Positions 1 through 62,391 of a stretch of DNA of 64,000 bases are shown here, piece after piece (position 1 is the stretch's first letter; every line of letters begins with the position of its first letter). The stretch is from positions 1,619 through 65,618 of the IMG/VR virus record IMGVR_UViG_3300048436_000037. One strand, 5' to 3'. Under the pieces are notes generated by a model that worked only from the letters and a program-made list of their open reading frames with translations, made no database searches and was not told where the DNA came from. This DNA comes from a virus (taxonomy: Duplodnaviria > Caudoviricetes). The position numbers and the translations under genes were made by a program.

Positions 1-501
1 ACTAGAAAAAATTTTGGTGTGTCTATGTTTCCTTTCATTTATTAAATGTTTTTGTTTCCCTGAATCAGAGAAGATTATATCATAATTATTTGGTAATGAA
101 GCTTTTAGGATCATATCTACCATGTTGGTGTAACTGTAAAACCTAACGTTAGGATTGCTTTTAGCAATGTCGATCCACTTTTTTAGATATGCACGAGAAT
201 AATAATCTCCGCTATCATGGACTCTGACGTAATCAGGTTTCTTCTTACGTATTTCAGCGTTCATAGCTTCAACAAATTTGTCAGTCTTGCTGAGTTGATA
301 ACGCTTTTCGAACGCAGGTTTTACGTTACTCCATATATAGGCTCCTTTCTTGGCATAACAGAATTTAACACAACTGTCAGCCATGGGGCACGTCAGTTTC
401 CCGCTAGCAGATTTGTAGGCAGGAATACCGAAGTTAAAGACCCGGAGCCCAAGTTCTTTTGATGTTTTTTTAAGTTTAGTATTTTGTGTTAATAAGTTCA
501 T
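1..501 (-). CDS. GP88-like Fe-S/radical-SAM-related phage protein (3' end runs off window; absent from ORF track)
   Basis: Manual translation from ATG at 501: MNLLTQNTKLKKTSKELGLRVFNFGIPAYKSASGKLTCPMADSCVKFCYAKKG...YVRVHDSGDYY; CPxxxxCxxxCYA and RVHDSGD motifs typical of the phage gene-88 family. Confidence 0.75.
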   Translation of the reverse strand, partial: MNLLTQNTKLKKTSKELGLRVFNFGIPAYKSASGKLTCPMADSCVKFCYAKKGAYIWSNVKPAFEKRYQLSKTDKFVEAMNAEIRKKKPDYVRVHDSGDYYSRAYLKKWIDIAKSNPNVRFYSYTNMVDMILKASLPNNYDIIFSDSGKQKHLINERKHRHTKIFSS

Positions 502-508
502 AATCTAT

Positions 509-778
509 TTAATCTAATAATACCATATAAGCTTCAACGTTATTTTTACGAAACCAGTTCAAAGCTTTTTGAAATTCGTCAACTTTTTTAGGTGTTACAG
601 TTTTAGGAGCACGTTCGAAAACCCACTGACAACCCATTATAAAGTCGTATATAGACAACTCTAAACCATTCAGTGTATAGCATTGACCGCTAAAAGGATT
701 TTGAACTTCTTCACCTTTATCGTATATCATACCTTTAAACCATTTAGGTATATCTTGTTTTTTAATCTTGTTCTTCAT
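509..778 (-). CDS. hypothetical early protein
   Basis: ORF track 509..787; second Met (778) taken as start; tightly packed in the minus-strand operon. Confidence 0.7.
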   Translation of the reverse strand: MKNKIKKQDIPKWFKGMIYDKGEEVQNPFSGQCYTLNGLELSIYDFIMGCQWVFERAPKTVTPKKVDEFQKALNWFRKNNVEAYMVLLD

Positions 779-1220
779 AACCTTCATCTATTAATTCGTC
801 AATAATTTGTTCTTCTAATCTTTCTGCTTGATACACAAACACTTGCTCGATAGCATAATCTATAAAGTCTGCTGCATCGTCGTCTACATATACATACTCA
901 GGATAATCTTCATCACCATTACTGCATTGTATAAACTCAGCAAGTCTGTCCGCTATATCAGTATCGTAATAGTATACATCTTCGCATATACTAATATTTC
1001 TAGGGTCATGAGCAGCAATCCATACACTGTAACCATCTGCTGTACTTTCTTCATAAATACTGAAGTCAGCGTCGTTATTAAAACCAGTAGTAAACTTAAC
1101 ACCGAAGTGGTTAAGTACTGATTCTTTTGCTAGCTCTTCGTTTTCACTTTGTTTTTCACCGAAACCTTTAGCTTCTAAACGTTCGTTGATTAATTCGTCT
1201 GTAATTTTTTTATTGCTCAT
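762..1220 (-). CDS. highly acidic hypothetical protein (possible DNA mimic)
   Basis: 152-aa ORF, very D/E-rich; function is inference only. Confidence 0.7.
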   Translation of the reverse strand: MSNKKITDELINERLEAKGFGEKQSENEELAKESVLNHFGVKFTTGFNNDADFSIYEESTADGYSVWIAAHDPRNISICEDVYYYDTDIADRLAEFIQCSNGDEDYPEYVYVDDDAADFIDYAIEQVFVYQAERLEEQIIDELIDEGYEEQD

Positions 1221-1461
1221 GTTTTTCTGGTATTAAAATGTTATCACCGTGTTTAAAATCCCAAGTAGATACTCTGTAAAAATCAATGTCAGCCCATACA
1301 TATAACGAGCTAACGTCACATATTTTTAGATCACTGTAAAACGTAGTACTATTTAGAGTTGCTATAATTGACTTAACAGACGAGCTGTAACGTTTTTCTT
1401 GTGAAGCCAATGCTTCTTTGATTTCAGGCTTTAGCCTTTCATAAATTGTTAATCTTGCCAT
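1210..1461 (-). CDS. hypothetical protein
   Basis: 83-aa ORF overlapping the downstream start, operon packing. Confidence 0.7.
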   Translation of the reverse strand: MARLTIYERLKPEIKEALASQEKRYSSSVKSIIATLNSTTFYSDLKICDVSSLYVWADIDFYRVSTWDFKHGDNILIPEKHEQ

Positions 1462-1466
1462 TTTAT

Positions 1467-1805
1467 TTAGTTTTTAATTGGTTTATATTCAGTAGTTGCA
1501 TAGTACTCACTTTCAACTTCATTTTCAAATTCCATTAGTAATTTCGCAAATGCACCATCACCATATAGTTTAACATATAGTTCTTCGAAGCCATCTGTTT
1601 TTACTCCTTTACCGTTTATTACAAATCTTTCAGAAATCTCTGTAATATCGTGGTCATACGCAGGTTTACCATCTTCACCTTCATTGATAATTTCTGATAC
1701 AACACTCCAACAGTCGGCATGTATAGAAAAGAATCCCATGTCTTTGCTAAATTCTGTGTAGACACTACGATCTACATTTACTTGATTTTTAATTACTTTA
1801 CTCAT
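1467..1805 (-). CDS. hypothetical acidic protein
   Basis: 112-aa ORF with AT-rich leader. Confidence 0.7.
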   Translation of the reverse strand: MSKVIKNQVNVDRSVYTEFSKDMGFFSIHADCWSVVSEIINEGEDGKPAYDHDITEISERFVINGKGVKTDGFEELYVKLYGDGAFAKLLMEFENEVESEYYATTEYKPIKN

Positions 1806-1825
1806 AATATTTAATTTTAAATTAG

Positions 1826-1899
1826 GTGCGCAGGGAGGATTCGAACCTCCGACCTCGAGTTTATGAGACTCGCGAGCTAACCAGCTGCTCTACCGCGCA
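1826..1899 (-). tRNA. tRNA with CAT anticodon (Met; Ile2 not excluded)
   Basis: Minus strand TGCGCGG TA GAGC AGCTGGTTA GCTC G CGAGT CTCATAA ACTCG AGGTC GGAGG TTCGAAT CCTCC CTGCGCA C; full cloverleaf; A11:U24 initiator-like but no GGG/CCC anticodon stem; no encoded CCA. Confidence 0.9.
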
Positions 1900-1901
1900 A
1901 T

Positions 1902-1929
1902 AGTGGACGTGGCGGGAATCGAACCCGCG
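1902..1929 (-). pseudogene. orphan tRNA/tmRNA 3' end (T-arm plus acceptor strand), truncated at the cassette array
   Basis: Minus strand C GCGGG TTCGATT CCCGC CACGTCC A CT; no matching 5' acceptor strand found upstream. Confidence 0.6.
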
Positions 1930-1964
1930 ATAAATTGCATTAAAACGCATTTTATCTTAGTGTT
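1922..1964. repeat. attC-like site 0 (compact)
   Basis: AAC ccg CGATAAATTGCATT aa AACGCATTTTATCT tagt GTT; its AAC is the complement of the GTT of the orphan T-arm. Confidence 0.6.
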
Positions 1965-1972
1965 GTAGTGCA

Positions 1973-2233
1973 TTACCTTTTTTCTTTAAGCCATCTTTTG
2001 TATGCGTTTTCTATCTTGGTTCGTTCCATTCCAGAGTACCATTCTATAAAATCAAAAGGTAACGTTCCCTCACTTTCGTTCGGCACAACAACACTATGTA
2101 TAAGTAATTGCTTTCTAACCTTATCTAAATTGGCTCGTGCTTCTGTTACATCAGTACCTTCTTGTCCGTGAAAGTAATCTTCCCAATGTGCTAAAGTATC
2201 ATCTACTTTTTCTAAATAATCTAATGTTGTCAT
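1973..2233 (-). CDS. cassette 1 hypothetical protein
   Basis: 86 aa; LLIHSVVVP is encoded by the arm of attC-like site A. Confidence 0.7.
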   Translation of the reverse strand: MTTLDYLEKVDDTLAHWEDYFHGQEGTDVTEARANLDKVRKQLLIHSVVVPNESEGTLPFDFIEWYSGMERTKIENAYKRWLKEKR

Positions 2234-2286
2234 AATCTATTTTGTTTAATTCTTAATCCCCGCAACTACTCATACATTTTAACGTT
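2090..2286. repeat. attC-like site A
   Basis: AAC act ATGTAT AAGTAATTGC (2090-2111) ... GCAACTACTC ATACAT tttaac GTT (2262-2286). Confidence 0.8.
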
Positions 2287-2294
2287 AGGTGCAA

Positions 2295-2585
2295 TTAGTA
2301 CGCACCATTACTAAACCAATATTTCGTTTCACAATCTTCGCAACAATGAACTTCTTCCCAATCCCAATAGCTACCATCCATAGTAGAACCTTTGCTTTCA
2401 TTGAAACATTTAGGGTATTGCTCGTTGTTCACTTCATATTGTTCGTCATTATCATTATGCCATTTACCGCAATTCGGGCATTTGTAATCTTTAACCTTAA
2501 CTGCACCTAACAATGTATATAAATCATTGCATTTAGGCATTGGTGTAGTTCCGTTCATTTTGTGTTCTAAATCTGTTAAATCCAT
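2295..2585 (-). CDS. cassette 2 zinc-ribbon protein
   Basis: 96 aa with CPNCG...CEDC; CNDLYTLLGA is encoded by the arm of site B. Confidence 0.7.
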   Translation of the reverse strand: MDLTDLEHKMNGTTPMPKCNDLYTLLGAVKVKDYKCPNCGKWHNDNDEQYEVNNEQYPKCFNESKGSTMDGSYWDWEEVHCCEDCETKYWFSNGAY

Positions 2586-2634
2586 AGTTCGTGTTTATTT
2601 ATTGGTAATGCAACGCTTCATATACTCGTCCGTT
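2509..2634. repeat. attC-like site B
   Basis: AAC aat GTATAT AAATCATTGCATT (2509-2533) ... AATGCAACGCTTC ATATAC tcgtcc GTT (2607-2634). Confidence 0.8.
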
Positions 2635-2658
2635 GGCACACATTAAAACGATGATGCC

Positions 2659-2947
2659 AACAACGTGTATAAAAAATAAATTTATTCAAGTTCTTTATCC
2701 GTTATTGCTTTGTACACGCTCTTTAAGTCTGCCATATCTTTAAGGGTTTTAATATAATACAAACCACCATCAACTTCACAGAAATGGCATAAATCCCATC
2801 TACCTTTAAATCTATTGCTTTTTATTATACTAAATTCCAATCTATCGCAATAACTACCATCGGTTTCTTTTCCGAATGTTTGCAGTTTATCTAAGTCTTT
2901 CTCTGTTATCATATCCATAAATTTACATTTTCATACACTTTTAAGTT
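2659..2947. repeat. attC-like site C (entire ORF inside the loop)
   Basis: AAC aac GTGTAT AAAAAATAAATTTA (2659-2684) ... TAAATTTACATTTTC ATACAC ttttaa GTT (2918-2947). Confidence 0.8.
2682..2918 (-). CDS. cassette 3 hypothetical protein
   Basis: 78-aa ORF exactly filling the loop of site C. Confidence 0.7.
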   Translation of the reverse strand: MDMITEKDLDKLQTFGKETDGSYCDRLEFSIIKSNRFKGRWDLCHFCEVDGGLYYIKTLKDMADLKSVYKAITDKELE

Positions 2948-3200
2948 AGCCACAATTATTAGCTAAAAAATCATTTACATCGCTTTCGTCTAATATATCT
3001 TGGCTATCTACCATACATTGGTTTACTTCTTCATTGTAAGCTAATAACAGTTCACGTTGTTGGCTAACATTGTGTATATTTAATGCCTTACTTATCATTT
3101 CCATTGCCATAGTCTGTGATATGGTGGTGTTTAACCAATTATGTTTGTACTTATCACAAACGTCATTGTATATTTGTTTTTGTTGTTCAGTATATTCCAT
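2946..3200 (-). CDS. cassette 4 hypothetical protein
   Basis: 84 aa; ALNIHNVSQQ is encoded by the arm of site D; stop TAA lies in the GTTAGCC core. Confidence 0.7.
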   Translation of the reverse strand: MEYTEQQKQIYNDVCDKYKHNWLNTTISQTMAMEMISKALNIHNVSQQRELLLAYNEEVNQCMVDSQDILDESDVNDFLANNCG

Positions 3201-3252
3201 TTTTATTAATTTTAGTTATTATTCATCGGCACTAATCATACACTTTTAAGTT
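3066..3252. repeat. attC-like site D
   Basis: AAC att GTGTAT ATTTAATGCC (3066-3087) ... GGCACTAATC ATACAC ttttaa GTT (3228-3252). Confidence 0.8.
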
Positions 3253-3421
3253 ATAAGCCATTAAAAGTGATGGTTGCACAATTAAATAGCAAGTGGTAAA
3301 ACGCCCAGCACATTGAAGCTGCAAGAAGTATACTACCCACACTGTAATTCTCTTTTTTTGTAAGCGGTGTAAGAGTTCTTATCACAGCCAATGCAAATAC
3401 AATAATCATTAATTCGTTCAT
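3251..3421 (-). CDS. cassette 5 small membrane protein (56 aa, absent from ORF track)
   Basis: MNELMIIVFALAVIRTLTPLTKKENYSVGSILLAASMCWAFYHLLFNCATITFNGL*; two hydrophobic stretches; stop in the GTTATAA core. Confidence 0.65.
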   Translation of the reverse strand: MNELMIIVFALAVIRTLTPLTKKENYSVGSILLAASMCWAFYHLLFNCATITFNGL

Positions 3422-3444
3422 TTTTCTAATATTAAACGGCTTAT

Positions 3445-3531
3445 AACAAGGGCTAAAATTAATAGCTCTGTCAAGCCAATTACTTAATTGATTAGTTCAT
3501 TACTTAGGCTACTAATCTTAGCCAAACCGTT
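3445..3531. repeat. attC-like site E
   Basis: AAC aag GGCTAA AATTAATAGC (3445-3466) ... GCTACTAATC TTAGCC aaacc GTT (3508-3531). Confidence 0.8.
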
Positions 3532-3573
3532 AAAAATAACCACCTTCTTGCAATCTAATCCAAGCCGGGTTTA

Positions 3574-3674
3574 GTAACTAGTGAGGATTCGAACCTCATA
3601 CCCGTCGGTAGCCATAGTCATTATAGGCTCGTGAAAACGTTTACCTACTTCAGTACTAAACCTGACCTAGTTGC
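3574..3674 (-). ncRNA. tRNA-like element (canonical T-arm and acceptor, aberrant body)
   Basis: Minus strand GCAACTAG...TGAGG TTCGAAT CCTCA CTAGTTAC; internal TCAG/CTGA and GTAGGT/GCCTAT stems; about 100 nt. Confidence 0.5.
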
Positions 3675-3689
3675 CGGCTATTGTGTGAT

Positions 3690-3920
3690 CACTAATCGTA
3701 TCTTTCGCCATCGGTTTTCGTATTTTCTTGAGAGCTATATACCGTAAAACTCTAGTTAGCTATTCGCTTATGTTGTAACTGCACGTCATTTACCGGTGTG
3801 TACCCTGACTTATGTTACACTAATTAAGCTACTCGTCTAGCAATAAACACATTAGAGGATCTTCGTTAGCTTAACTACTTAAAATACCGTAGCCGTACTA
3901 AGCCCTCCACCGTGTTTAAT
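3690..3920 (-). ncRNA. putative structured non-coding RNA region
   Basis: No ORF in track; minus-strand stems AAACAC/GTGTTT, TGGAGG/CCTCTA, GCTTAG/TTAAGC, TAGCT/AGCTA, TGTAAC/GTTACA, GTCA/TGAC. Confidence 0.35.
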
Positions 3921-3922
3921 TT

Positions 3923-4408
3923 TTATACTTTTTTATACTCTATACCGTTGATTACTATGTAATCTTCGTTTACTTTTGTAACATACTCCCAAGTTGGTCT
4001 TGGTTCTATGTCTGTATTTTTTAATAAATACTCTTTTAGAAATACAAGTCTAGTTAACTCGTTGGTAATCAATACTCTTTTGACACCTGCATCATACTTA
4101 TTTACTTTTGTTTTACCATTTTCGTCGATAGTTACCCAATATACTGGAGCTTTTCGCTGTGGATTTAGTTGATAGCAAGACATCTCACCGAACCTAGTGC
4201 GTATTATTCTACGCACCATACCTGATTTATAAGAAGCAAACTTAGATACATCACCATTGCTTGCTGTTACCTCGAACATAGTTGTACCGTTTTTTAATTG
4301 GGTAGGTGTTGTTACTTCTTTAACTGCTGGATATTCTCTTAAGAATATTGCTTTGTAATCGTCTACTAATCTTTGTTGCTGTTGTTGATATTGTTCTGCG
4401 TAAGTCAT
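3923..4408 (-). CDS. hypothetical protein
   Basis: ORF track 3923..4438; MTYAEQ start at 4408 abuts the upstream stop. Confidence 0.7.
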   Translation of the reverse strand: MTYAEQYQQQQQRLVDDYKAIFLREYPAVKEVTTPTQLKNGTTMFEVTASNGDVSKFASYKSGMVRRIIRTRFGEMSCYQLNPQRKAPVYWVTIDENGKTKVNKYDAGVKRVLITNELTRLVFLKEYLLKNTDIEPRPTWEYVTKVNEDYIVINGIEYKKV

Positions 4409-4409
4409 A

Positions 4410-4598
4410 TTATCTTCGTCTTTGTGATTTATGTACAAGCGCGCTTAGCTCTTGGCTTACTATTTGAATTGTGTTACCTGTTTTGTGGTAAGTAATTGGA
4501 ACATAAGAATGTTTTTTTACTTCAGAACAAGGAGGACATGTTTTATATCCTAAGTTTAATCGATAAGGGTGGACTTCGTCGCCGCATTTACAGTACAT
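4410..4598 (-). CDS. DksA/TraR-like C4 zinc-finger protein
   Basis: MYCKCGDEVHPYRLNLGYKTCPPC resembles the CxxCG..I...RL......C..C pattern. Confidence 0.55.
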   Translation of the reverse strand: MYCKCGDEVHPYRLNLGYKTCPPCSEVKKHSYVPITYHKTGNTIQIVSQELSALVHKSQRRR

Positions 4599-4626
4599 AG
4601 TTTATTATTTTTATTTGTTACATATA

Positions 4627-4659
4627 TATTATCCAGTAGTAATTTTATTTTGTTTGTAA
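4627..4659 (-). promoter_or_regulatory. early promoter-like motif copy 1
   Basis: Minus strand TTACAAACA-N16-GGATAATA, intergenic upstream of 4598. Confidence 0.75.
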
Positions 4660-4863
4660 TTAATCACACTCGTAATACTTTCTTTTAATAGACATATACA
4701 TTTTTTCAACAGCTAAGAACATAACCATATCGTGTAGCTCTTTATAGTCGTCTCCACTTACAGGTTGATCCGCTATTTGCCAATCAATGCTGTCTTCCAT
4801 TAATTCTTTAGTGACGTCAGCAACACCTTGTGCTATTTCGTCTATTTCTTTTATTTTACTCAT
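4660..4863 (-). CDS. hypothetical protein
   Basis: 67-aa ORF in operon. Confidence 0.65.
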   Translation of the reverse strand: MSKIKEIDEIAQGVADVTKELMEDSIDWQIADQPVSGDDYKELHDMVMFLAVEKMYMSIKRKYYECD

Positions 4864-4987
4864 CTCTTCTGGTTTATTAGTTCTTCAACTTCACAGAATA
4901 ACATTTCATCTATATCTGCTCTAGTGTAATACTCTTTGCATAGCTCGTATGCTAAATCCCATGGATTTTTAACTGGTTGATTGTTCA

Positions 4988-5200
4988 TTATAAATATTTT
5001 TTAACTCTTTCTTTTATTAATAGTATATCTCTGTCTGTTATATACATAGCTTGCTCGTATTCTAAAGTGTTACTTATAATACTGCTAAAATTTTCCCACA
5101 TCTTTAAATCCATTTGCATAGCAATAGAATCTATATGTTCTTCTGATAAGGTCTGCTTATCTTCTTGTATTTCGTGCCATTTTTTTACTGAATCACTCAT
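4988..5200 (-). CDS. hypothetical protein
   Basis: 70-aa ORF in operon. Confidence 0.65.
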   Translation of the reverse strand: MSDSVKKWHEIQEDKQTLSEEHIDSIAMQMDLKMWENFSSIISNTLEYEQAMYITDRDILLIKERVKKYL

Positions 5201-5312
5201 ATTATATTATTTTATTAATTCTTCTAATTTTTCAATGAAGCCAGGATATTCTGATCTCATATCCTCGCCGTATAGTTCATACCATGTATTATCTATTATA
5301 CTTATATCTTCT

Positions 5313-5519
5313 TTATGCATCTTGGTATTTTTTAAGTGTCATGTCATTTACTTTATCAATGATCTCATTACCTACCATAGTGAAGTAACCTTGTGCAAAA
5401 ATAGATCTTTTCCCGTCAGCCTCAGCTGCTTTAACATCTTCTTCTGCTTGTTCGATAGCGGATTTTAACGCTGTTTGGATGAAATACTTTTCAAATCCAT
5501 TAAATTTAGTTTTACTCAT
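5313..5519 (-). CDS. hypothetical protein
   Basis: 68-aa ORF, TAATG coupling with upstream gene. Confidence 0.7.
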   Translation of the reverse strand: MSKTKFNGFEKYFIQTALKSAIEQAEEDVKAAEADGKRSIFAQGYFTMVGNEIIDKVNDMTLKKYQDA

Positions 5520-5785
5520 TACAGTGTCTTTTTTATTATTAATAGTTGTTTTGTGTCAAACTTCTTGTGAGTTTCTTGCCACATACGGTTGTGGGTGAAC
5601 TTTCTAGCTTTTGCGAAGTTAGATTTCTGACGAGTTGTAATACTATTGTATTCTTTGTCAGTTAGTCCACCACATACACCGTCTGCTCGAACAGCACGTC
5701 TATGCCCGTCTGCTCGTATTTGTTTTTGTAGTTCCGAGTAAGCTAGTAGCTCTTTCATAGTTCTCGGATTAGATATTACGCCCAT
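5519..5785 (-). CDS. hypothetical basic protein
   Basis: 88-aa ORF overlapping neighbours. Confidence 0.65.
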   Translation of the reverse strand: MGVISNPRTMKELLAYSELQKQIRADGHRRAVRADGVCGGLTDKEYNSITTRQKSNFAKARKFTHNRMWQETHKKFDTKQLLIIKKTL

Positions 5786-5970
5786 GGATTAGTAGATTTT
5801 TCAACATAAGTTAAACCTTTGTAGTTGAACCATTGAATAATACCTTCTTGATCTTTATTCTCATCATAGATGAAGGCAAATCTTTTTGGTAGATTACCTA
5901 CAGTATAGCCTTTGTAGGTTATACCATTAAGTTTTATTGTACTTGAATTTTGAAATTTAATTGTCTGCAT
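5776..5970 (-). CDS. hypothetical protein
   Basis: 64-aa ORF directly downstream of promoter motif. Confidence 0.7.
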   Translation of the reverse strand: MQTIKFQNSSTIKLNGITYKGYTVGNLPKRFAFIYDENKDQEGIIQWFNYKGLTYVEKSTNPWA

Positions 5971-5996
5971 AGTTTATTATTTATTATTTACATTTA

Positions 5997-6029
5997 TATT
6001 ATCCAATAGTAATATTATTTTGTTTGTAA
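5997..6029 (-). promoter_or_regulatory. early promoter-like motif copy 2
   Basis: TTACAAACA-N16-GGATAATA. Confidence 0.75.
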
Positions 6030-6032
6030 CTT

Positions 6033-6275
6033 TTATTGATTTATAGTTACTTCAACCCAACCTTTTTCGCTATGACCTGAGTACACACTTAGACCATCAT
6101 TTGTTAGTATTTCCTCTAGTTTCTGTGCTGCTCGCCAAAGACTTGGTTCAGGCATCTCGTCATGCTCGTCGTCATACATTACTTCACCACGACACTGATA
6201 AAACACATCGTTCCAATCATTTTCCACTAGTTCGAAATCCCATCCATTTACTGTAATTCTTTCTGCTAAATCCAT
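6033..6275 (-). CDS. hypothetical acidic protein
   Basis: 80-aa ORF, TAATG coupling. Confidence 0.7.
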   Translation of the reverse strand: MDLAERITVNGWDFELVENDWNDVFYQCRGEVMYDDEHDEMPEPSLWRAAQKLEEILTNDGLSVYSGHSEKGWVEVTINQ

Positions 6276-6460
6276 TAATTTTTAAATATTATATTAGTTA
6301 AATCCTTTATTAAATCTTCTTCTGAATCGTCACCTTCTGGTATACAATCCATTTCTACAAACAACTCGATCTTTTGAATAGTTTTCTCTTTGCTTAAATA
6401 GCAACTTATAAATTTAAAGTAATTTATAGTTTCCTCGTCCCACTTTATTGTATTTTCCAT
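6275..6460 (-). CDS. hypothetical protein
   Basis: 61-aa ORF. Confidence 0.65.
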   Translation of the reverse strand: MENTIKWDEETINYFKFISCYLSKEKTIQKIELFVEMDCIPEGDDSEEDLIKDLTNIIFKN

Positions 6461-6576
6461 ATTATCTTCTTATTGCATAAGATGCAGCGGCACCTAACTC
6501 TGTTAATACTTTGTTGACTCTTTTTAGTACTAATAGTACTTTGTGTGAAAATTTTATCATTGTTATTAGTTTATTA

Positions 6577-6609
6577 TATTATCCAATAGTTATTATTATT
6601 TGTTTGTAA
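6577..6609 (-). promoter_or_regulatory. early promoter-like motif copy 3
   Basis: TTACAAACA-N16-GGATAATA. Confidence 0.75.
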
Positions 6610-6612
6610 TTC

Positions 6613-6885
6613 TTAATCGCCTGTATACTCGCCTGAGTATGTATTAGAATACCAATCTCTTCGCGCTTCGTGCACTAGATCTTGTATTTGTAATAGATCT
6701 TGTCTTTGATCGATCAAGTAATCTATTTCATCTTGCATATCTTGCTCACTTAGTTTAGTAAACATACTTGTTTCTAAACCATCTAGTAAGTTTCTGTCGT
6801 TGCAGTGATAATTATCGTACTTGATACCATTCCAAGTCTCGCTTAGTATATAAGTATACTCTATATTTCTGTAAGTTTTAGTCAT
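6613..6885 (-). CDS. hypothetical protein
   Basis: 90-aa ORF. Confidence 0.7.
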   Translation of the reverse strand: MTKTYRNIEYTYILSETWNGIKYDNYHCNDRNLLDGLETSMFTKLSEQDMQDEIDYLIDQRQDLLQIQDLVHEARRDWYSNTYSGEYTGD

Positions 6886-7178
6886 TATTAGTAGATTTAT
6901 AAAAGTTAATTCTTGTAAGTACTTCGCATTGAGAGATCTTACCTTCCATTTGTAATAGTATATCGCTTGACATATCTATTTTTTTACCATTAGGGCAAGT
7001 TAGTATAAATTGCATATTATTTAGTTTAGTAGAAGTCATAGTATATATCTATTACTTGAGATCTTTGATTGCTAGTTAGTTCGTTAAAGTCTTTCTTGAA
7101 GATTCTTCTTGATATTTTTAGTAAGGTATATGATTTTGTACACATAGTTTTATTATTTATTAGTTATTAATTTATTAG

Positions 7179-7254
7179 TAGTCGTTGGTGGAATCGAACC
7201 ACCTCACAAAGTAGAGCTCACGTAGTCAAAATGCAGAGTGAAACCGTTACGACT
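7179..7254 (-). ncRNA. tRNA-like element / degenerate tRNA
   Basis: Minus strand AGTCGTA...GGTGG TTCGATT CCACC AACGACT A; tRNA-sized with acceptor and T-arm but no recognisable D/anticodon arms. Confidence 0.5.
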
Positions 7255-7270
7255 TGTTACTCGGATAGTA

Positions 7271-7498
7271 CTATTTTTCTAGTACTTCTCGAGCGATCAC
7301 TGGTACACTAGTTGAAGAAGTGTAAGACTTGTACTTGATGAAGCAAGCCATATTTTCTAGTTTAGACTTCATTACTTCATACACTTTATCGTGATTATAA
7401 GTAACTGTTTTACCATTTTTGAAGTTGACAGTGATTAGTTGGTTTTTACCAATTAGTGATTTTCTGATTACAAATCTTTTTGAAATTAAAGTTGACAT
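7271..7498 (-). CDS. early protein, paralogue A
   Basis: 75 aa, highly similar to 7821..8051 (SKRFV.RKSLIGKNQ...KYKSYTSSTS.PVI). Confidence 0.8.
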   Translation of the reverse strand: MSTLISKRFVIRKSLIGKNQLITVNFKNGKTVTYNHDKVYEVMKSKLENMACFIKYKSYTSSTSVPVIAREVLEK

Positions 7499-7546
7499 AG
7501 TTAAAATTATTTAGTTATTATTATTATTATTAGTTTGTTACATTTA

Positions 7547-7579
7547 TATTATCCAAATGGAATATTATTTTGTTTGTAA
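7547..7579 (-). promoter_or_regulatory. early promoter-like motif copy 4
   Basis: TTACAAACA-N16-GGATAATA. Confidence 0.75.
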
Positions 7580-7763
7580 AAGGTGTATTATTATTTATTA
7601 GTAAAAATAGTTAGAGAAGTTTTATGCACTATCTCTTATAGTATAACACACTATTATAAGTAAAACTTATAGTTAAATATGGTGTAGAGTGGAGTCTAGT
7701 CTTCCGATCTTATTTCAGGATCAGGCCTGCAATGGAACACACTAAATGTAGTGTTACAAAAAG

Positions 7764-7810
7764 TGTGACATTAGCTTGTTAGATTAATAGAGTAACAGGC
7801 TATTGTCACA
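7764..7810. promoter_or_regulatory. palindromic operator/origin-like site copy 1
   Basis: TGTGACATTAGCTTGTTA...TAACAGGCTATTGTCACA. Confidence 0.65.
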
Positions 7811-7820
7811 GTTTAGTATA

Positions 7821-8051
7821 TTACTCAGTGATTATTAATTCACGAGTAATAACTGGCATCGATGTGCTACTTGTATATGATTTATACTTCGCCCAACAGT
7901 TCATTGTTTCTAACTTTGGTTTCATTACTTCATACACATCATCGTGATTATACTTAGCGACTTTACCATTTTTGAATGTTACTTCAATGATTTGATTCTT
8001 TCCGATTAATGATTTGCGAACAACAAATCTTTTTGATTTTAATACTGACAT
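7821..8051 (-). CDS. early protein, paralogue B
   Basis: 76 aa, paralogue of 7271..7498. Confidence 0.8.
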   Translation of the reverse strand: MSVLKSKRFVVRKSLIGKNQIIEVTFKNGKVAKYNHDDVYEVMKPKLETMNCWAKYKSYTSSTSMPVITRELIITE

Positions 8052-8098
8052 AGTTTTAATTTATTTAAGTTATTATTATTATTTATTAGTTACATTAT

Positions 8099-8131
8099 TA
8101 TTATCCAAAATGTAATGTGGTTTGTTTGTAA
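8099..8131 (-). promoter_or_regulatory. early promoter-like motif copy 5
   Basis: TTACAAACA-N16-GGATAATA. Confidence 0.75.
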
Positions 8132-8326
8132 TAATATGTGAAATTAGCTGTTGAAATTGTAATGTAATATGTGAATGCATGGATGAAAACAACATGATCA
8201 CGCGTATATATGCAAACGTAAACGTAAAAACATGGGGGACCCGGTAAAATGAAAATGATTTTGAAATTATGTAACATAAGTGGAAAATAGTGGGTAACCC
8301 CATACTCCTATATATCTAACGAAAAC

Positions 8327-8372
8327 TATGACATTAGCCTTATAGAGTATATAGTAAGGGGCTATTGTCACA
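8327..8372. promoter_or_regulatory. palindromic operator/origin-like site copy 2
   Basis: TATGACATTAGCC...GGCTATTGTCACA at the strand switch. Confidence 0.65.
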
Positions 8373-8377
8373 CTATT

Positions 8378-8409
8378 GTAAAAAACAGTGGTTTTGTGTG
8401 AGTATATAC
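8378..8409 (+). promoter_or_regulatory. late/middle promoter-like motif
   Basis: GTAA-N16-GTGAGTATATA; same spacing as copies at 11788, 23018, 32605, 37825 and 61586(-). Confidence 0.55.
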
Positions 8410-8427
8410 ACTATAATAAAAGCAATT

Positions 8428-8745
8428 ATGGCAAAACCAAAAAAGAAGGGAGGACCTAAGCAGCAGTTATCGCCTACAGGGCGTGCTAGAAAGGCTGCTA
8501 GAGATGTGTGTTATGCTAGAGGATGGGTTTGGAACAAAGAATCTGGTACATGCTCTGAATCTGGTAAAGGAATATCGACAAGTTCTTTACAAAGAAAGGA
8601 GAAAAAGGCAGAGAATCAAAGAATAGGGCAAAATAGTAGCACAGATCTGCACCATGTTGGTGGTGAATTAGGTAAAACCAAAAGAGTACCAGTTGGTAGC
8701 AACAGAGGAGACAGTGGAGATGGTACTAAAAACGACAGAAAATAA
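8428..8745 (+). CDS. basic protein, possible HNH-like nuclease remnant
   Basis: Start MAKPKK at 8428; DLHH...G...RV...NRG pattern. Confidence 0.5.
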   Translation: MAKPKKKGGPKQQLSPTGRARKAARDVCYARGWVWNKESGTCSESGKGISTSSLQRKEKKAENQRIGQNSSTDLHHVGGELGKTKRVPVGSNRGDSGDGTKNDRK

Positions 8746-8760
8746 AGATAAAAGACAAGT

Positions 8761-11394
8761 ATGGCAATAATATATACATATCCTGAGATAAATCAAGTAG
8801 AAGGTGAAGACTTATTGCTTATAAGTGATACTAACTTATATAAAAGGCCTACTAGGAGCGTAACAGTAGATGATTTAGCTGCTTACATAGGTACTGTGGT
8901 TGGTGTTGTGCAGAATTTACAGTCTGTGCTTACAGTTGGTAACACTTACGTAAGCCCTGATGGATATGGTACATTTACATTAAACGATATTACAAATAAT
9001 GATGGGCAAATAAAGTATGTAAATACAGATGAAGGATGGGGATATCTAATTAGCGCAGAGGAGGGTTTTAATATTACTAATGGTTCTGGAACTAATTTAA
9101 TGTCAATTTATTCTTCTGGATTATCAATAAGAAATGGTGCTCATGTAATGAACATTGGCACTAATGCGTTAACTGCAACTAGGAATGTATACTTTCCAGA
9201 CGCAAGTGGGACTATTGCATTGACAAGTGATATACCTTCACCGGGCCCAAGTGGATCTGGTACTACTAATTATACGGCTAGATGGACAAGCGCTAGTGCT
9301 TTAGGTATTGGTACTTTATATGATAACGGAACTAATGTAGGTATTGGGACTACAACTCCAACACAAAAACTCGAAGTTAACGGTACTATGCTACTTAGCA
9401 CTTTACCGAACAACAACGGAAGGCTATGTCTAGGTAGTGTCAGTACTAACCTTTTTAGTAATGCCGCGAGTGGTCATTTGTATATTTCAACTAACGGTTC
9501 TACAAGAATGACTATTCTTAATAATGGTAATGTAGGAATCGGTAACACTAGCCCTAGTGAGAAGCTAGACGTTGAAGGTAACGTAAGAGTAGGTGTAAAT
9601 AATGGTTTCTATATAAACAACCAGAACGTAGGAATAAAAAGAACGTCTAACGATTTAGTGTTAGGAGGTTTTGGGAACGTTATAATTAGGTCATCAAGTA
9701 CCACAGTAGTTAATCAAGCTGAACGTATGAGAATCACTTCAGCAGGAAACATTGGTATCGGGACATCTAGTCCAGCATATATATTAGATGTGGTTTCACC
9801 TGGTACAGCAACAGCTAGATTAAAATCCGCAGGAACAGGAGCTATATCTTTAAGATACGAAAACGGAGGTGGTTTTAAGAGCGCAGCTGTAGTAGATAAT
9901 AATGGATTATATAGACTAGATGCTACTAATATATCTTTAAATCCAACTAACAACGTAGGTATCGGAACGACTAGTCCGAGTGAGAAATTACACATAGCAG
10001 GTAACATTAAGTTACTAGATAAGTTATCATTTACAGAACACAGCACTAATGATTATTTATCAGCAGAATCCTATGCATTAGTAGTTTCAGGTGACGATTC
10101 TATAAACTTTAGAGTTGGTGGTACTAGTTCATTTAATGTTTACACCACTCAAATCCGTCCTCAATCAACTAATACTGTTGATTTAGGGCACACTTCTTTT
10201 GGTTGGAAAACTGTAAGGTCAGTTGGTAACATTACGACTTCTGCTGGAGCTGTTGGTATTGGTACTCAATATCCAACTTCTGCATTAGATGTTATAAGTA
10301 ACAGTAGCGGCAACGGTATTGACCTAAGGTCTAACTCTGCAAATGCTTATTCTCAGATTAGGTTTTACAATAACGACCATACAAGTAATACAGGTTCTAT
10401 AATTAACTACCACAATAGTGGTTCACCTGACTTTGCTTTTAGACTTTTATCTGGCGCAGGTACGGTTGAAAGAATGCGTATTACATCAGTCGGTAACGTA
10501 GGTATCGGGACTACTAGTCCTAGCCAGAAATTACACATAGAAGCTTCAGACCCGCGGATAAGAATAGTGGATACTGATGGGACTAATTGGGAAAGTGAAG
10601 TATTTACTCAAGGAGGTGCACTAAAGCTTCAAGCTAGAAATGGAACAAATTTTGGTAATATTTCTTTCCAAGGAGATAACGGCACGACTGAGTCCGAGTA
10701 CGCTAGGTTTAATTCAGTTGGTAATTTTGGTATCGGAACTAATAGTCCTAGTGCTAAGTTAGAAGTTGCTGGCGGCGGGCGTTTTGAAGTGATGACTGTA
10801 AAAGGATCGAACTCTTCTTATTGGCTTTACGATAGAGATTTAAATAACAGAGGGCAAGAATCTTTTAGAATATCAAGAAATGTAGGGAATCTTTCGTTTT
10901 ATGATAGAACTTATAACGGAGGTTACGAAGAATTAGAATTTTTGAAATTTAGCCATGGCACGAGTGGGTCTTCTGTTTTAAGTTTAAAATCCAAAAGTAC
11001 AATAGATTTTTTAATAAATCAGTCTAATGTAGCTCGTATTAACTCATCTGGTAACGTAGGTATTGGAACGACTAACCCTTTATCAAAGTTAAACGTTAAC
11101 GGTAGTATAAAAATAGAGGGTGAAAACCAGCTTTACTTTGGAAGCTCTGGTTCTGTTCCTTTATGGGAGATAAAAGCGTCGGGTAGTGATTTAGTTATAA
11201 ACGACACAGGTAGTAACGTAGGATCTGTACTATTTAACAACGACGAAGGTATTGTTCTACCTAGATTAACAACTACAGAGATAAACGCTATATCATTACC
11301 TAACACAGGTTTAACAGTATATAACACAACTTTAAATACTTTATGCTTCTACAATGGAAGTAGCTGGCAGAAGGTTAGTCACACAAGCATGTAA
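8761..11394 (+). CDS. tail fibre / receptor-binding protein with GNVGIGTTSP repeats
   Basis: 877 aa with about 8 (G)NVGIGTxxP..KL.V repeats typical of trimeric beta-fibres in Bacteroidota and marine phages. Confidence 0.8.
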   Translation: MAIIYTYPEINQVEGEDLLLISDTNLYKRPTRSVTVDDLAAYIGTVVGVVQNLQSVLTVGNTYVSPDGYGTFTLNDITNNDGQIKYVNTDEGWGYLISAEEGFNITNGSGTNLMSIYSSGLSIRNGAHVMNIGTNALTATRNVYFPDASGTIALTSDIPSPGPSGSGTTNYTARWTSASALGIGTLYDNGTNVGIGTTTPTQKLEVNGTMLLSTLPNNNGRLCLGSVSTNLFSNAASGHLYISTNGSTRMTILNNGNVGIGNTSPSEKLDVEGNVRVGVNNGFYINNQNVGIKRTSNDLVLGGFGNVIIRSSSTTVVNQAERMRITSAGNIGIGTSSPAYILDVVSPGTATARLKSAGTGAISLRYENGGGFKSAAVVDNNGLYRLDATNISLNPTNNVGIGTTSPSEKLHIAGNIKLLDKLSFTEHSTNDYLSAESYALVVSGDDSINFRVGGTSSFNVYTTQIRPQSTNTVDLGHTSFGWKTVRSVGNITTSAGAVGIGTQYPTSALDVISNSSGNGIDLRSNSANAYSQIRFYNNDHTSNTGSIINYHNSGSPDFAFRLLSGAGTVERMRITSVGNVGIGTTSPSQKLHIEASDPRIRIVDTDGTNWESEVFTQGGALKLQARNGTNFGNISFQGDNGTTESEYARFNSVGNFGIGTNSPSAKLEVAGGGRFEVMTVKGSNSSYWLYDRDLNNRGQESFRISRNVGNLSFYDRTYNGGYEELEFLKFSHGTSGSSVLSLKSKSTIDFLINQSNVARINSSGNVGIGTTNPLSKLNVNGSIKIEGENQLYFGSSGSVPLWEIKASGSDLVINDTGSNVGSVLFNNDEGIVLPRLTTTEINAISLPNTGLTVYNTTLNTLCFYNGSSWQKVSHTSM

Positions 11395-11420
11395 TAAATA
11401 AATAAATAAATAAATAAATT

Positions 11421-11783
11421 ATGGTAACTTACGATTGGAATTGTAAAACAGTGGATTGCTATCCAGAACAAAATAGCGAAGCAGATGTAGTGTACAATGT
11501 GCACTGGATTGTAACAGGTGCATCAGATCAATTAGATCCAGAAGGTAACCCTTACTCAGCTACTAATATTGGTACTCAAGTATTAGACACGAGTAGTATA
11601 ACAAACTTTATACCGTTTGACCAGTTAACTAACGATGAGGTAGTTGCTTGGACAAAAGGAGCTATGGGAAGCGAGCAAGTGGCAGAGATTGAATCAAACA
11701 TCGAAAAACAAATTCAAGATTTAATAACACCTACTAGTATTACATTAGTGATTGGAGAGCCTGTACCACCTGTTGAAGAATAA
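11421..11783 (+). CDS. putative tail-fibre-associated/chaperone protein
   Basis: 120 aa directly after the fibre; VVYNVHW...FIPFDQLT...V..W pattern common next to fibres in marine phages. Confidence 0.6.
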   Translation: MVTYDWNCKTVDCYPEQNSEADVVYNVHWIVTGASDQLDPEGNPYSATNIGTQVLDTSSITNFIPFDQLTNDEVVAWTKGAMGSEQVAEIESNIEKQIQDLITPTSITLVIGEPVPPVEE

Positions 11784-11787
11784 ATAG

Positions 11788-11819
11788 GTAAAAAAAACGC
11801 ATAACAGGTAATGATATAG
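11788..11819 (+). promoter_or_regulatory. late/middle promoter-like motif
   Basis: GTAA-N16-GTAATGATATA upstream of groEL. Confidence 0.6.
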
Positions 11820-11866
11820 TTATTAGTTATGTAAACAAAATATAATCAAATTTAATTAAATAAACT

Positions 11867-13420
11867 ATGGATGCAATAGTTAAGAATCTAAACTTCGGAG
11901 AGAAGGCTAGAAAAAATGTCTATGAAGGTATAGACAAGTTGACTAAAGCCGTTAGTTCTACACTAGGAGCTAGCGGTAAATGTGTGATGCTAGAAGATCA
12001 TACAGGTAGACCCATTATAACAAAGGATGGTGTTACTGTAGCAGAGTCAGTTATATTAAGAGATCCAGTTGAAAATATGGGAGCTACACTTTTAAAGGAG
12101 GCAGCTCGTAAAACCGTAAAAGAAGCTGGAGATGGAACTACAACTGCCACTGTGCTAGCTCACGCTATATTAACAGAAGCTTACAAAGTATTAGACAAGA
12201 CAAATACAAGAAGCTTAAAAGAAGGTATTGATAAATCTGTAGAATCTGTTGTAGAGTATTTAAAAGAAAACTCTGTACAAGTTACAGATGACATGTTAGA
12301 TCAAGTAGCTACAATATCTACCAATAACGACCCTGAACTTGGTAAAATAATTGGTGATGCTTTCAGGCTTGTTGATTTGACGGGTGTAGTAGTAATGGAA
12401 CCTACCGAGGATAATGAAACTTCTGTAGAACTAGTTGAAGGTGTTGAGTACGACAAAGGACTTGTTAACTCTCATTTTGTCACTAGTAAAACTAAAAGAG
12501 CAGCAGAGCTTGAAAACGCATTGGTATTAATAGTAGAATCACCAGTTGAGTCTATAAGAAAAATACAAAGTGTTTTAGAGTATGTTATAAAGAATAATAA
12601 ATCTTTATTGATAATAGCTGATTGTGAGCAGAGTGTTATTTCTGCTTTAGCTATGAATAAAGTTAAAGGTAATATAAAAGTAAATGTTATCAACGCGCCT
12701 ACATATGGTGTTAGTAAAAAAGATACTTTAAACGACCTAGCCCTTCTTACAGGCGCTACGGTGATAAATGAGGATCTTGGAGATGATATGGACCTTATAC
12801 AACCAGAATATCTAGGAAGTTGCTTAAAAAGCATTACAACAGATCTAGAGACTATAATACAGGTTGAGGACAATAATCCTAATGTAGAAAAGTTAATTCA
12901 AGATCTTAGAGATCAAATAGAAAATACAAAGAATCCTAACGAGGTAATAAGATTAGAAAGACGACTTGGTCGTATATCTGCAAAAGTTGCTATTGTTAAA
13001 GTTGGGGCAAATTCTGAAATAGAATTAAAAGAAAAACAAGATAGAGTTGAAGACGCTATCTGTGCTACTAAAGCCGCAATCAAGGAAGGTATTGTTTCAG
13101 GTGGTGGTATTGCACTTCTAAATGCCTCGAGTAAAATAAAGGCAAAAACAACTGGGGAAAAAGTTTTATTAAAAGCTATTAGAGCACCTTTTAAAACAAT
13201 ACTTAGTAATGCTGGTATAGAGAAGTACGATACTCCTAGCGTTGAAGGTGAAGGATTAAATGTGGTTACAGGAAATATGGTAAATATGATAGACTCAGGT
13301 ATTATCGATCCTTTACTAGTAACTAAAAGCGCTTTAAGAAACGCGGCTTCTGTAGCATCAACAATAATATCTACTGATTGTGTAATTAATAACTTGAGGA
13401 TTGATGATAGCAATAGGTAG
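11867..13420 (+). CDS. groEL: phage-encoded chaperonin GroEL
   Basis: [34 protein letters not shown] motifs; no GGM tail. Confidence 0.97.
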
Positions 13421-61605: not shown

Positions 61606-62391
61606 TTACAGAAAGTCAATCACTTGCGAGCTATCTACGTTAGCTATTAATTTATCTATAGCAGCCTTTTTTAGCTCAGATATTCTCACATAATTACTAA
61701 CTCCAGTTATGTTTAGCTTAACAGCTATTTCTTTAGCTGAATGTTTTTCACAGTCCATACCGTAACTCAATCTTATAACTTCGTATTCTGTATTGCTTAA
61801 GTACTGTTTCATTATACCCATCAAATAAGCATTCATAAGATCTATATTATAAGGAGTTGAGTTGTCTTCTATAGACTGAGCAAAACTCATTGTATTATCG
61901 TCATTTTTGTAAGTATTACTTTTACTTACTTGCTCATTATCTAAAGAAGTAAACATACTTGTTATAAAGATTTTACTTAAATCTTCATTGTCTGGATTTT
62001 TACGTATTTCATTTAGCTTATGCTCTGGTATTCTCATACCTCCTTTGTTTATATCTATACGTCTACGTATTGCACCTTTAATTCGTTTACTTAAAAATGA
62101 CTTTAAAGTTTTTTCAACATCAGGAGATTGATCTATAACTAACCAGTCTATTTTGTTTACAGCTTTAACCAAAGCTTCATTACCTATTTGTATTAAATCA
62201 TTAATACTAAGTATTCCAGATGCTTGATCACTAGTTGAAAACTTTCTAGCTAGATTTTCTACCAAAGGCATAAACTTAATTATAAGTTCATCTTTAGTGT
62301 ACTCATCGTAAAACTTACCTTCAAGGTTAGCTATAGATGTTTTAACATCTGTCTTATATCTTACGTAATTTTGTACGTTATATTTCTTCAT
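61606..62391 (-). CDS. phage RNA polymerase sigma factor (sigma70 family)
   Basis: LV..LARKF, DLIQIGN..L.KAV, RIKGAI, MRIP, region 4 VIRL.YG...EIA..L. Confidence 0.88.
   Translation of the reverse strand: MKKYNVQNYVRYKTDVKTSIANLEGKFYDEYTKDELIIKFMPLVENLARKFSTSDQASGILSINDLIQIGNEALVKAVNKIDWLVIDQSPDVEKTLKSFLSKRIKGAIRRRIDINKGGMRIPEHKLNEIRKNPDNEDLSKIFITSMFTSLDNEQVSKSNTYKNDDNTMSFAQSIEDNSTPYNIDLMNAYLMGIMKQYLSNTEYEVIRLSYGMDCEKHSAKEIAVKLNITGVSNYVRISELKKAAIDKLIANVDSSQVIDFL

Follow-up and report, generated by a model that had tools for sequence, protein, structure and literature searches.

A likely integron-type cassette array without its own integrase in a marine phage, and the same site family in Flavobacteriaceae chromosomes

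We describe an array of small gene cassettes at positions 1922-3531 of a 64,000-nucleotide stretch of phage DNA (Duplodnaviria; Caudoviricetes), here called the window, which covers bases 1619-65618 of the 65,618-base virus record IMGVR_UViG_3300048436_000037, a record rated complete. In all likelihood this region is an integron-type cassette array that has no integrase of its own, like the clusters of attC sites lacking integron-integrases (CALIN), with units exchanged between the G and the TT of a conserved GTT (G^TT) and served by an enzyme acting in trans. Integrons are a textbook bacterial gene-capture system. The array in the window shares its site family with other phages and with chromosomes of the Flavobacteriaceae, where arrays of the same sites adjoin the gene of a tyrosine recombinase.

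A first-pass annotation, made from the letters alone, had placed six inverted repeats within the region and given them a common architecture of inverted AAC and GTT cores. All six lie at the coordinates it gave, and the cores are present in six of six. The sites and one further hairpin are as follows.

1922-1964, minus strand: site 1, a compact terminal hairpin (AAC-N3-CGATAA..TTATCT-N4-GTT), at the array end where host arrays carry the recombinase gene
2090-2286, minus strand: site 2, a hairpin with a 16-bp stem and two G.T pairs on the minus strand
2509-2634, minus strand: site 3, from the architecture scan and the fold
2632-2661, no strand assigned: an empty GTT..AAC mini hairpin of 30 nt at the start of cassette 3
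2659-2947, minus strand: site 4, with one indel in the stem
3066-3252, minus strand: site 5
3445-3531, minus strand: site 6, of a GGCTAA/TTAGCC core subclass with N3/N5 spacers that is also found in locus G001 and in Tamlana

On the plus strand, sites 2-5 read AAC-N3-(R)GTATA..stem / stem..TAYAC-N6-GTT; on the minus strand each site reads X'-AAC-N6-stem...stem-N3-GTT-X, where X and X' are the outer boxes. This architecture is far above chance in 1922-3531. A gapless scan of the 64-kb window returned seven matches, five of them within the region, where the sixth site carries the stem indel; when the window was shuffled 20 times by mononucleotide over its full length, 0-7 matches appeared (mean 2.65), or about 0.07 expected per 1.6 kb. 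Translation passes through the arms in two reading frames or more, and the constraint on them is therefore at the nucleotide level. Gene-free site loops in the phage family consist of a constant 10-nt motif, and terminal hairpins like site 1 close the arrays of viral contig L021 and locus G003, with compensatory changes in their stems.

The bases that follow each GTT had been described as the reverse complement of those that precede the next AAC, and this is so at all five junctions. Pairing is exact over 10, 7, 8 and 10 bases at 2284/2511, 2632/2661, 2945/3068 and 3250/3447, and extends over 13 of 14 positions at the first junction (1958-1971/2083-2096). A lack of such complementarity in other arrays had been named beforehand as a possible refutation; the pairing recurs in every other array examined. 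The two outer X boxes of a unit can pair with each other only once the unit is closed into a circle, and they covary within units, both in viral arrays and in further loci. The mini hairpin at 2632-2661 is identical in six viral contigs (the window and L017-L021) with different adjoining genes, and a 49-bp identity between the window and G001 starts at the G of its GTT. Among assembled seawater contigs (runs X2, X3 and X5), a variant of cassette 3 carries another mini hairpin in its place.

The strand that folds is the minus one and, in the window, it is also the coding strand. Sites were detected in a strand-neutral manner, by Watson-Crick pairs alone with up to three mismatches of any kind, which gave 28 candidate rows from nine records. 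Read on the minus strand, the non-Watson-Crick stem positions of these rows comprise 39 G.T and 2 A.C, counts that are not independent, as two of the positions occur repeatedly and some of the rows, though few, are false. Replacement of G by A in the 5' arm leaves the partner T unchanged. The minimum-energy DNA fold coincides with the site hairpin for three of the three window sites folded as minus strand and for none of the three as plus strand. It is the excess of G.T, together with minimum-energy folds found on the minus strand only, that identifies the folded strand.

Cuts at each G^TT yield five units with exactly one intact minus-strand open reading frame (ORF) apiece, as the first-pass annotation had it.

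1963-2284, minus strand: cassette 1, ORF 1973-2233, 86 aa, no family
2285-2632, minus strand: cassette 2, ORF 2295-2585, 96 aa, with zinc-ribbon-like CxxC pairs and weak Pfam hints only
2633-2945, minus strand: cassette 3, ORF 2682-2918, 78 aa, inside the loop of site 4
2946-3250, minus strand: cassette 4, ORF 2946-3200, 84 aa, matching phrog_30067 (function unknown) at E 3.4e-5
3251-3529, minus strand: cassette 5, ORF 3251-3421, 56 aa, hydrophobic by eye

In cassettes 4 and 5 the stop codon of the ORF occupies the first three bases of the unit, and the ORF of cassette 3 lies entirely within the hairpin 2659-2947, both points made earlier and both borne out. The further claim that the ORFs are antisense to the site, with their 5' parts in the hairpin loop, has to be divided. 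All five ORFs are on the folding strand, and four of them start in the loop of their own site; the ORF of cassette 5 is located between GTT and the next AAC, outside its site's loop. Start codons in the phage cassettes stand 5-50 nt past the 5' arm. Neither Pfam nor PHROGs supplied a function for the five cassette proteins.

In nature, the array loses and gains units, and units acquire other neighbours, at the conserved G^TT. Parts of 1400-4000 are contained in 24 public runs, at shares from 0.97 down to 0.13 (0.13-0.19 of sampled words in the RNA runs X19-X24), and variants were examined in the assembled contigs of four seawater DNA runs, including X2, X3 and X5. One contig of X5 joins 1961 to 2284 and so skips 322 nt, which is cassette 1; another joins 1961 to 2632 and skips 670 nt, which is cassettes 1 and 2. 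The letters common at these joints are solely GTT and GTTG, and the arms that precede the GTTs are otherwise unlike. In each of the four runs the cassette 1 piece (1962-2286) forms a contig by itself, and cassette 3 stands as a contig piece of its own (2658-2948). Foreign neighbours appear before 1962 in X3, where the neighbour is another site's arm ending in N6, and also after 2286 (X2, X3), after 2634 (X3, X5) and after 2948 (X3, X5). In X5 the depths of cassettes 1-5 are 17.1, 28.8, 29.5, 9.98 and 2.8, and that of the flank 1487-1747 is 0; some cassettes therefore live on other backbones, one of which resembles L021 (a loose end before 1928, in two contigs). Gain, loss or reordering of units precisely at G^TT had been set beforehand as a test. 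Two joints and four further breakpoints fall at GTT, as predicted, and four breakpoints fall elsewhere.

At least 12 viral records besides that of the window contain the site family; the cultured Cellulophaga phage phi13:2 and Polaribacter phage P12002L are among them. Six viral records, including that of the window phage, have three or more sites chained by X pairing of 7-18 bases. Pattern scans gave 17 further loci, of which 12 have such chains, with 16 sites in one. A first viral scan with a 17-mer returned eight contigs, with real sites in two only (L006 and L004) and chance-like matches in the others, and a two-arm pattern scan returned 18 contigs, mostly by chance. P12002L carries at least eight sites, all on one strand, which is the early-gene strand. 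No protein family is common to all array phages; the most widespread is a methyltransferase, in five of nine records, and the records are unrelated outside the arms. DNA methyltransferases are a recurrent cargo of the related phage arrays. As had been noted for the window, where no match to PF00589 was obtained, no tyrosine recombinase is encoded by the array phages checked: PF00589 matches none of the six array-bearing records (the window phage and five others).

Phage and host arrays differ in the orientation of their genes. When the longest ORF per unit is counted, and L057 is left out as it overlaps L075, 72 of 75 phage units, from 12 records, have the gene on the folding strand, one more unit being without an ORF of at least 40 aa. 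In chromosomal arrays (Tamlana contigs C17 and C12, Winogradskyella, Psychroserpens) the strand opposite the folding one carries it in 31 of 31 units, with three more units lacking an ORF. Two short contigs of metagenome-assembled genomes (MAGs), of unclear origin, show the folding strand in 4 of 4 and 1 of 2 units. By these counts, the layout of host arrays is that of classical integrons, and the layout of phage arrays is its inverse.

A pattern scan of bacterial sequences returned nine contigs, eight from Flavobacteriaceae/Bacteroidetes and one from a Cloacimonetes MAG. Tamlana, two Winogradskyella and Psychroserpens carry 6-31 copies of one 17-mer variant (two mismatches allowed), often on short contigs. 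The host sites are 123-127 nt long and 88-98% alike between genera, a likeness that masks breakpoints in the bacterial arrays. The array on Tamlana contig C12 ends at the gene of a 406-aa tyrosine recombinase (L074 9802-11022, plus strand; PF00589 at 1.5e-39), and orthologs of 55-57% identity adjoin the sites in both Winogradskyella genomes. At its N-terminus the Tamlana enzyme carries about 100 additional residues. Against the XerA/integron-integrase model its score is 220.2 bits (cut-off 220), and against the integron-integrase model TIGR02249 it is 195 bits (cut-off 265); the enzyme aligns over its full length with archaeal XerA and in two pieces with IntI4, with 20 residues at IntI4 181-243, the stretch that we take to hold the IntI-specific additional domain. 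Of 151 Flavobacteriaceae genomes sampled, 89 carry the 3'-arm motif and 33 carry at least five copies of it, whereas a reversed control pattern was found almost never. A recombinase homolog at E<=1e-50 is present in 96 of the 151, that is, in 30 of the 33 genomes with at least five motif copies and in 66 of the 118 others. In the 12 genomes for which gene and motif are both listed on one contig, their relative orientation is identical throughout, and for many of the homolog genes the end of the contig is only 160-270 nt away. The proposal that a recombinase from elsewhere serves the phage array is thus plausible, given the lack of PF00589 matches in the six phage records and the presence of the same sites beside a host recombinase; the candidate is Xer-like and not the canonical IntI.

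Two side observations concern these loci. Cassettes on Tamlana C12 include genes for a ParB_N protein with PRTase-CE, a DUF7668 protein and a MORN-repeat protein. In phi13:2, gp038 (L076 12243-13529) is a tyrosine recombinase gene about 300 nt past the array end and in the same direction; considered as a Tamlana-type enzyme, it gave 24% over 186 residues only and was taken to be the phage's own integrase.

Several features are shared with classical integrons. Both systems have inverted AAC/GTT cores, an imperfect hairpin on one strand, an R' tail complementary to the next R'', exchange at G^TT and one gene per cassette, and the host arrays add the long recombinase-headed array with genes on the non-folding strand. 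There are also differences. The phage has no integrase, its genes are antisense to the classical layout (five of five in the window), and its site loops reach up to 289 nt and contain coding sequence. In classical attC sites, which are about 57-141 nt long, extrahelical L-box bases mark the strand; here the stems are gapless with no bulged bases, and asymmetry lies in the 6/3-nt spacers and the two G.T positions. Sites for Xer recombinases (dif) and plasmid dif modules offer another likeness, in that the X'-AAC, 6-nt spacer and arm resemble a pair of inverted binding arms placed about a 6-bp centre and the partner is Xer-like, although to our knowledge dif sites have neither strand-specific folding, looped hairpins nor the cassette flank signature.

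Integrase-less phage cassette arrays are already known in virulent phages. Passages of Qi 2023 (PMC9892861) describe attC clusters in virulent phages, including the Flavobacteriaceae phage P12002L, and 17 phage CALINs; in the same passages, IntI1 is reported to have integrated the bottom strand of one attC from P12002L at G^TT, and cassettes are said to carry methyltransferases. The P12002L CALIN of those passages and the array described here have in common integrase-less attC-type hairpins that flank small genes and methyltransferases in a marine Flavobacteriaceae phage. For P12002L itself the numbers differ, two divergent attC being given there and at least eight sites on one strand being found here. 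The same passages contain no folding-strand genes, no stem-threaded genes and no Xer-like host recombinase. For Bacteroidetes, passages of the IntegronFinder 2.0 preprint list only In0 elements and one complete integron, from Salinibacter, and the literature searched yielded no description, for Flavobacteriaceae or Bacteroidota, of an integron-like system that uses a Xer-like recombinase. Within that literature, the inverted gene orientation, the threading of genes through sites and the Xer-like partner appear to be new.

Several observations weigh against an integron-type array. Folding energies of the sites are no better than those of shuffles (z +0.5 to -1.5). Site lengths are 43, 197, 126, 289, 187 and 87 nt, with two of six inside the attC range given above, and the stems lack the bulged bases of attC. 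The R' consensus GTTRRRY, as quoted in passages of PMC9892861, fits one end of six (GTTAGGT), the others being GTTGTAG, GTTGGCA, GTTAGCC, GTTATAA and GTTAAAA. A complete integron is recognised by an adjacent IntI with the IntI-specific domain; none is encoded in the phage, and the host enzyme falls below the TIGR02249 cut-off. The link between this recombinase and the sites is so far one of neighbourhood only, and the homolog is also found in more than half of the genomes with fewer motif copies. As for the natural variants, the two deletion-type joints are single contigs of one run with a 26-letter shorter side, under the caution limit of 30, and may reflect another phage backbone instead of a deletion here. 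No circular junction is among the three joints listed, although contigs drop rare forms. Four loose ends lie off G^TT: before 2658, where a different mini hairpin precedes the same cassette 3 body, behind 2689, behind 2295 and before 1928. A unit common to G001 and L021 (97.7%, 219 nt) ends right after AAC and begins only at the stem, with unlike N6, and a methyltransferase cargo common to G004 and G006 (86%, 669 nt) is flanked by wholly different X stems. These off-site breakpoints and shared units imply that stems and loop contents are exchanged too, one candidate route being general recombination at the conserved arms, driven by the phage ERF system. The methyltransferase cargo itself (G004 9657-10321 and G006b 688-1351) carries its own short inverted ends just within the GTT..AAC stems.

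Breakpoints of this kind invite comparison with the promoter(early)-stem-loop (PeSL) elements of T4-type phages, which, according to passages of PMC2839356 and PMC4122927, shuffle genes via promoter/stem-loop motifs. The arms would then be regulatory motifs, a promoter and/or a stem-loop, that offer short homologies to phage general recombination, and shuffling would be homologous. Small accessory genes, a repeated boundary motif and modular shuffling are common to both; the window phage encodes ERF and a PDDEXK exonuclease, phi13:2 encodes RecT, the six array records searched yielded no phage integrase, and some breakpoints do fall at inner arm ends. We nevertheless consider this explanation unlikely. 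The two deletion-type joints share 3-4 bases only, with unlike sequences upstream, and the four further breakpoints lie exactly at GTT. Covariation of the X boxes within units is not needed for homology-driven exchange, and in host chromosomes the same sites adjoin a tyrosine recombinase gene. The PeSL elements of those passages are promoter-terminator motifs exchanged by homologous recombination, in contrast to the covarying flanks, G^TT junctions and host recombinase seen here.

Alternatively, the hairpins could act as RNA, folding in early mRNA to affect processing, stability or translation, with cassette variation as a by-product. The phage arrays by themselves would suit such a role: the folding strand is the coding strand in nearly all units, the two conserved G.T(U) positions and the A-G changes opposite a constant T fit RNA pairing, and the start codons follow the 5' arm at short range. 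In the hosts the same site family has its genes on the other strand throughout, so that there the folded strand is not the mRNA. A role in RNA would also leave the G^TT breakpoints and the adjoining recombinase unexplained, and the translation of the arms in at least two frames points to a constraint on nucleotides. We regard this explanation as very improbable.

If the integron-type reading is correct, each unit would comprise one small early gene and a folded site, and exchange would be site-specific recombination on the folded minus strand. The catalyst, supplied in trans, may be the Xer-like tyrosine recombinase that heads same-site arrays in Flavobacteriaceae chromosomes. A phage gene often begins in the hairpin loop and reads out through the stem, and, since phage cassettes carry it on the folding strand, transcription of the phage pool runs counter to that of the host pool. 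The exchange might serve the turnover of early accessory genes, with a role in counter-defence suggested by the methyltransferases that recur as cargo in related phages. It is tempting to extend this to a wider proposal, one we hold only tentatively and at somewhat less than even chance. Flavobacteriaceae and their phages may share a distinct and apparently undescribed integron-like system, built on a Xer-type recombinase without the IntI domain, in which the phage pool is inverted and threaded through stems. A host enzyme would then shuffle the early counter-defence genes of phages, and would recombine even the two halves, front and back, of a small protein, while neither pool would be expressed in the arrays of the other.

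Surveys report integrons to be rare in Bacteroidota, yet a majority of the sampled Flavobacteriaceae genomes contain the present site family, with a non-canonical recombinase alongside. Should the link between the two hold, phages of a dominant marine bacterial family would renew their early genes with a recombinase of the host, and this reassortment would already be visible in natural seawater populations. The inverted phage orientation would then amount to a simple, testable rule that separates host and phage cassette pools in expression.

The source of the array is probably a virulent phage of marine Flavobacteriaceae. Its genome encodes ribonucleotide reductase, thymidylate synthase, a primase-helicase, the single-strand annealing protein ERF and a PDDEXK exonuclease, and the closest relatives of the primase-helicase are those of Cellulophaga phage phi10:1 (44% identity) and Tenacibaculum phage JQ. 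Megablast of window positions 1-12000 against the phage collection gave zero matches. Structured RNAs border the array on both sides.

1825-1899, minus strand: tRNA-Met (CAT), flanking the array
1901-1935, minus strand: 3' fragment of a tRNA-like RNA (T-arm and acceptor 3' strand), abutting the array; weak tmRNA-model match
3575-3925, minus strand: structured region without an ORF that ends in a tRNA-like T-arm, the other flank of the array; no Rfam match at E<=1

On 1-9000, Rfam at E<=1 returned the tRNA-Met, the weak tmRNA-model match and two chance-level matches, and nothing else. The fragment at 1901-1935 scores 19.5 bits on the tmRNA model (gathering score 47) and its 5' half is absent; the AAC of site 1 falls in its T-arm, and the array occupies the place where the 5' part would be. 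A relative, L012, has a longer form of this RNA with the matching 5' strand. In three viral contigs (L011-L013) the flanking proteins on both sides are 80-100% identical to those of the window and the array is absent. The gap between the flanking genes is just 338-632 nt there; it is occupied by a structured RNA with a T-arm at its end and, in addition, by a second tRNA-like RNA (L012) or a tRNA-Met (L013). Since these contigs share the flanks but not the array, the array, the ORF at 1467-1805 and the truncated second tRNA-like RNA are lineage-specific.

The structured region at 3575-3925 (about 350 nt, with T-arm and acceptor end) is conserved at both ends in L011-L013, with internal blocks swapped or absent, and 206 nt of it (3614-3819) are skipped in one X2 contig. 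ARAGORN, run with introns allowed and a lowered threshold, made tRNA calls in 3574-3680 that were unconvincing. Elsewhere in the window, the minus-strand gene 61606-62391 encodes a 261-aa protein with weak matches to sigma-70 region 2 and region 4, under the Pfam cut-offs, and may be a phage sigma factor. The plus-strand ORF 11867-13420 encodes 517 aa, with an N-terminus that by eye resembles a GroEL chaperonin.

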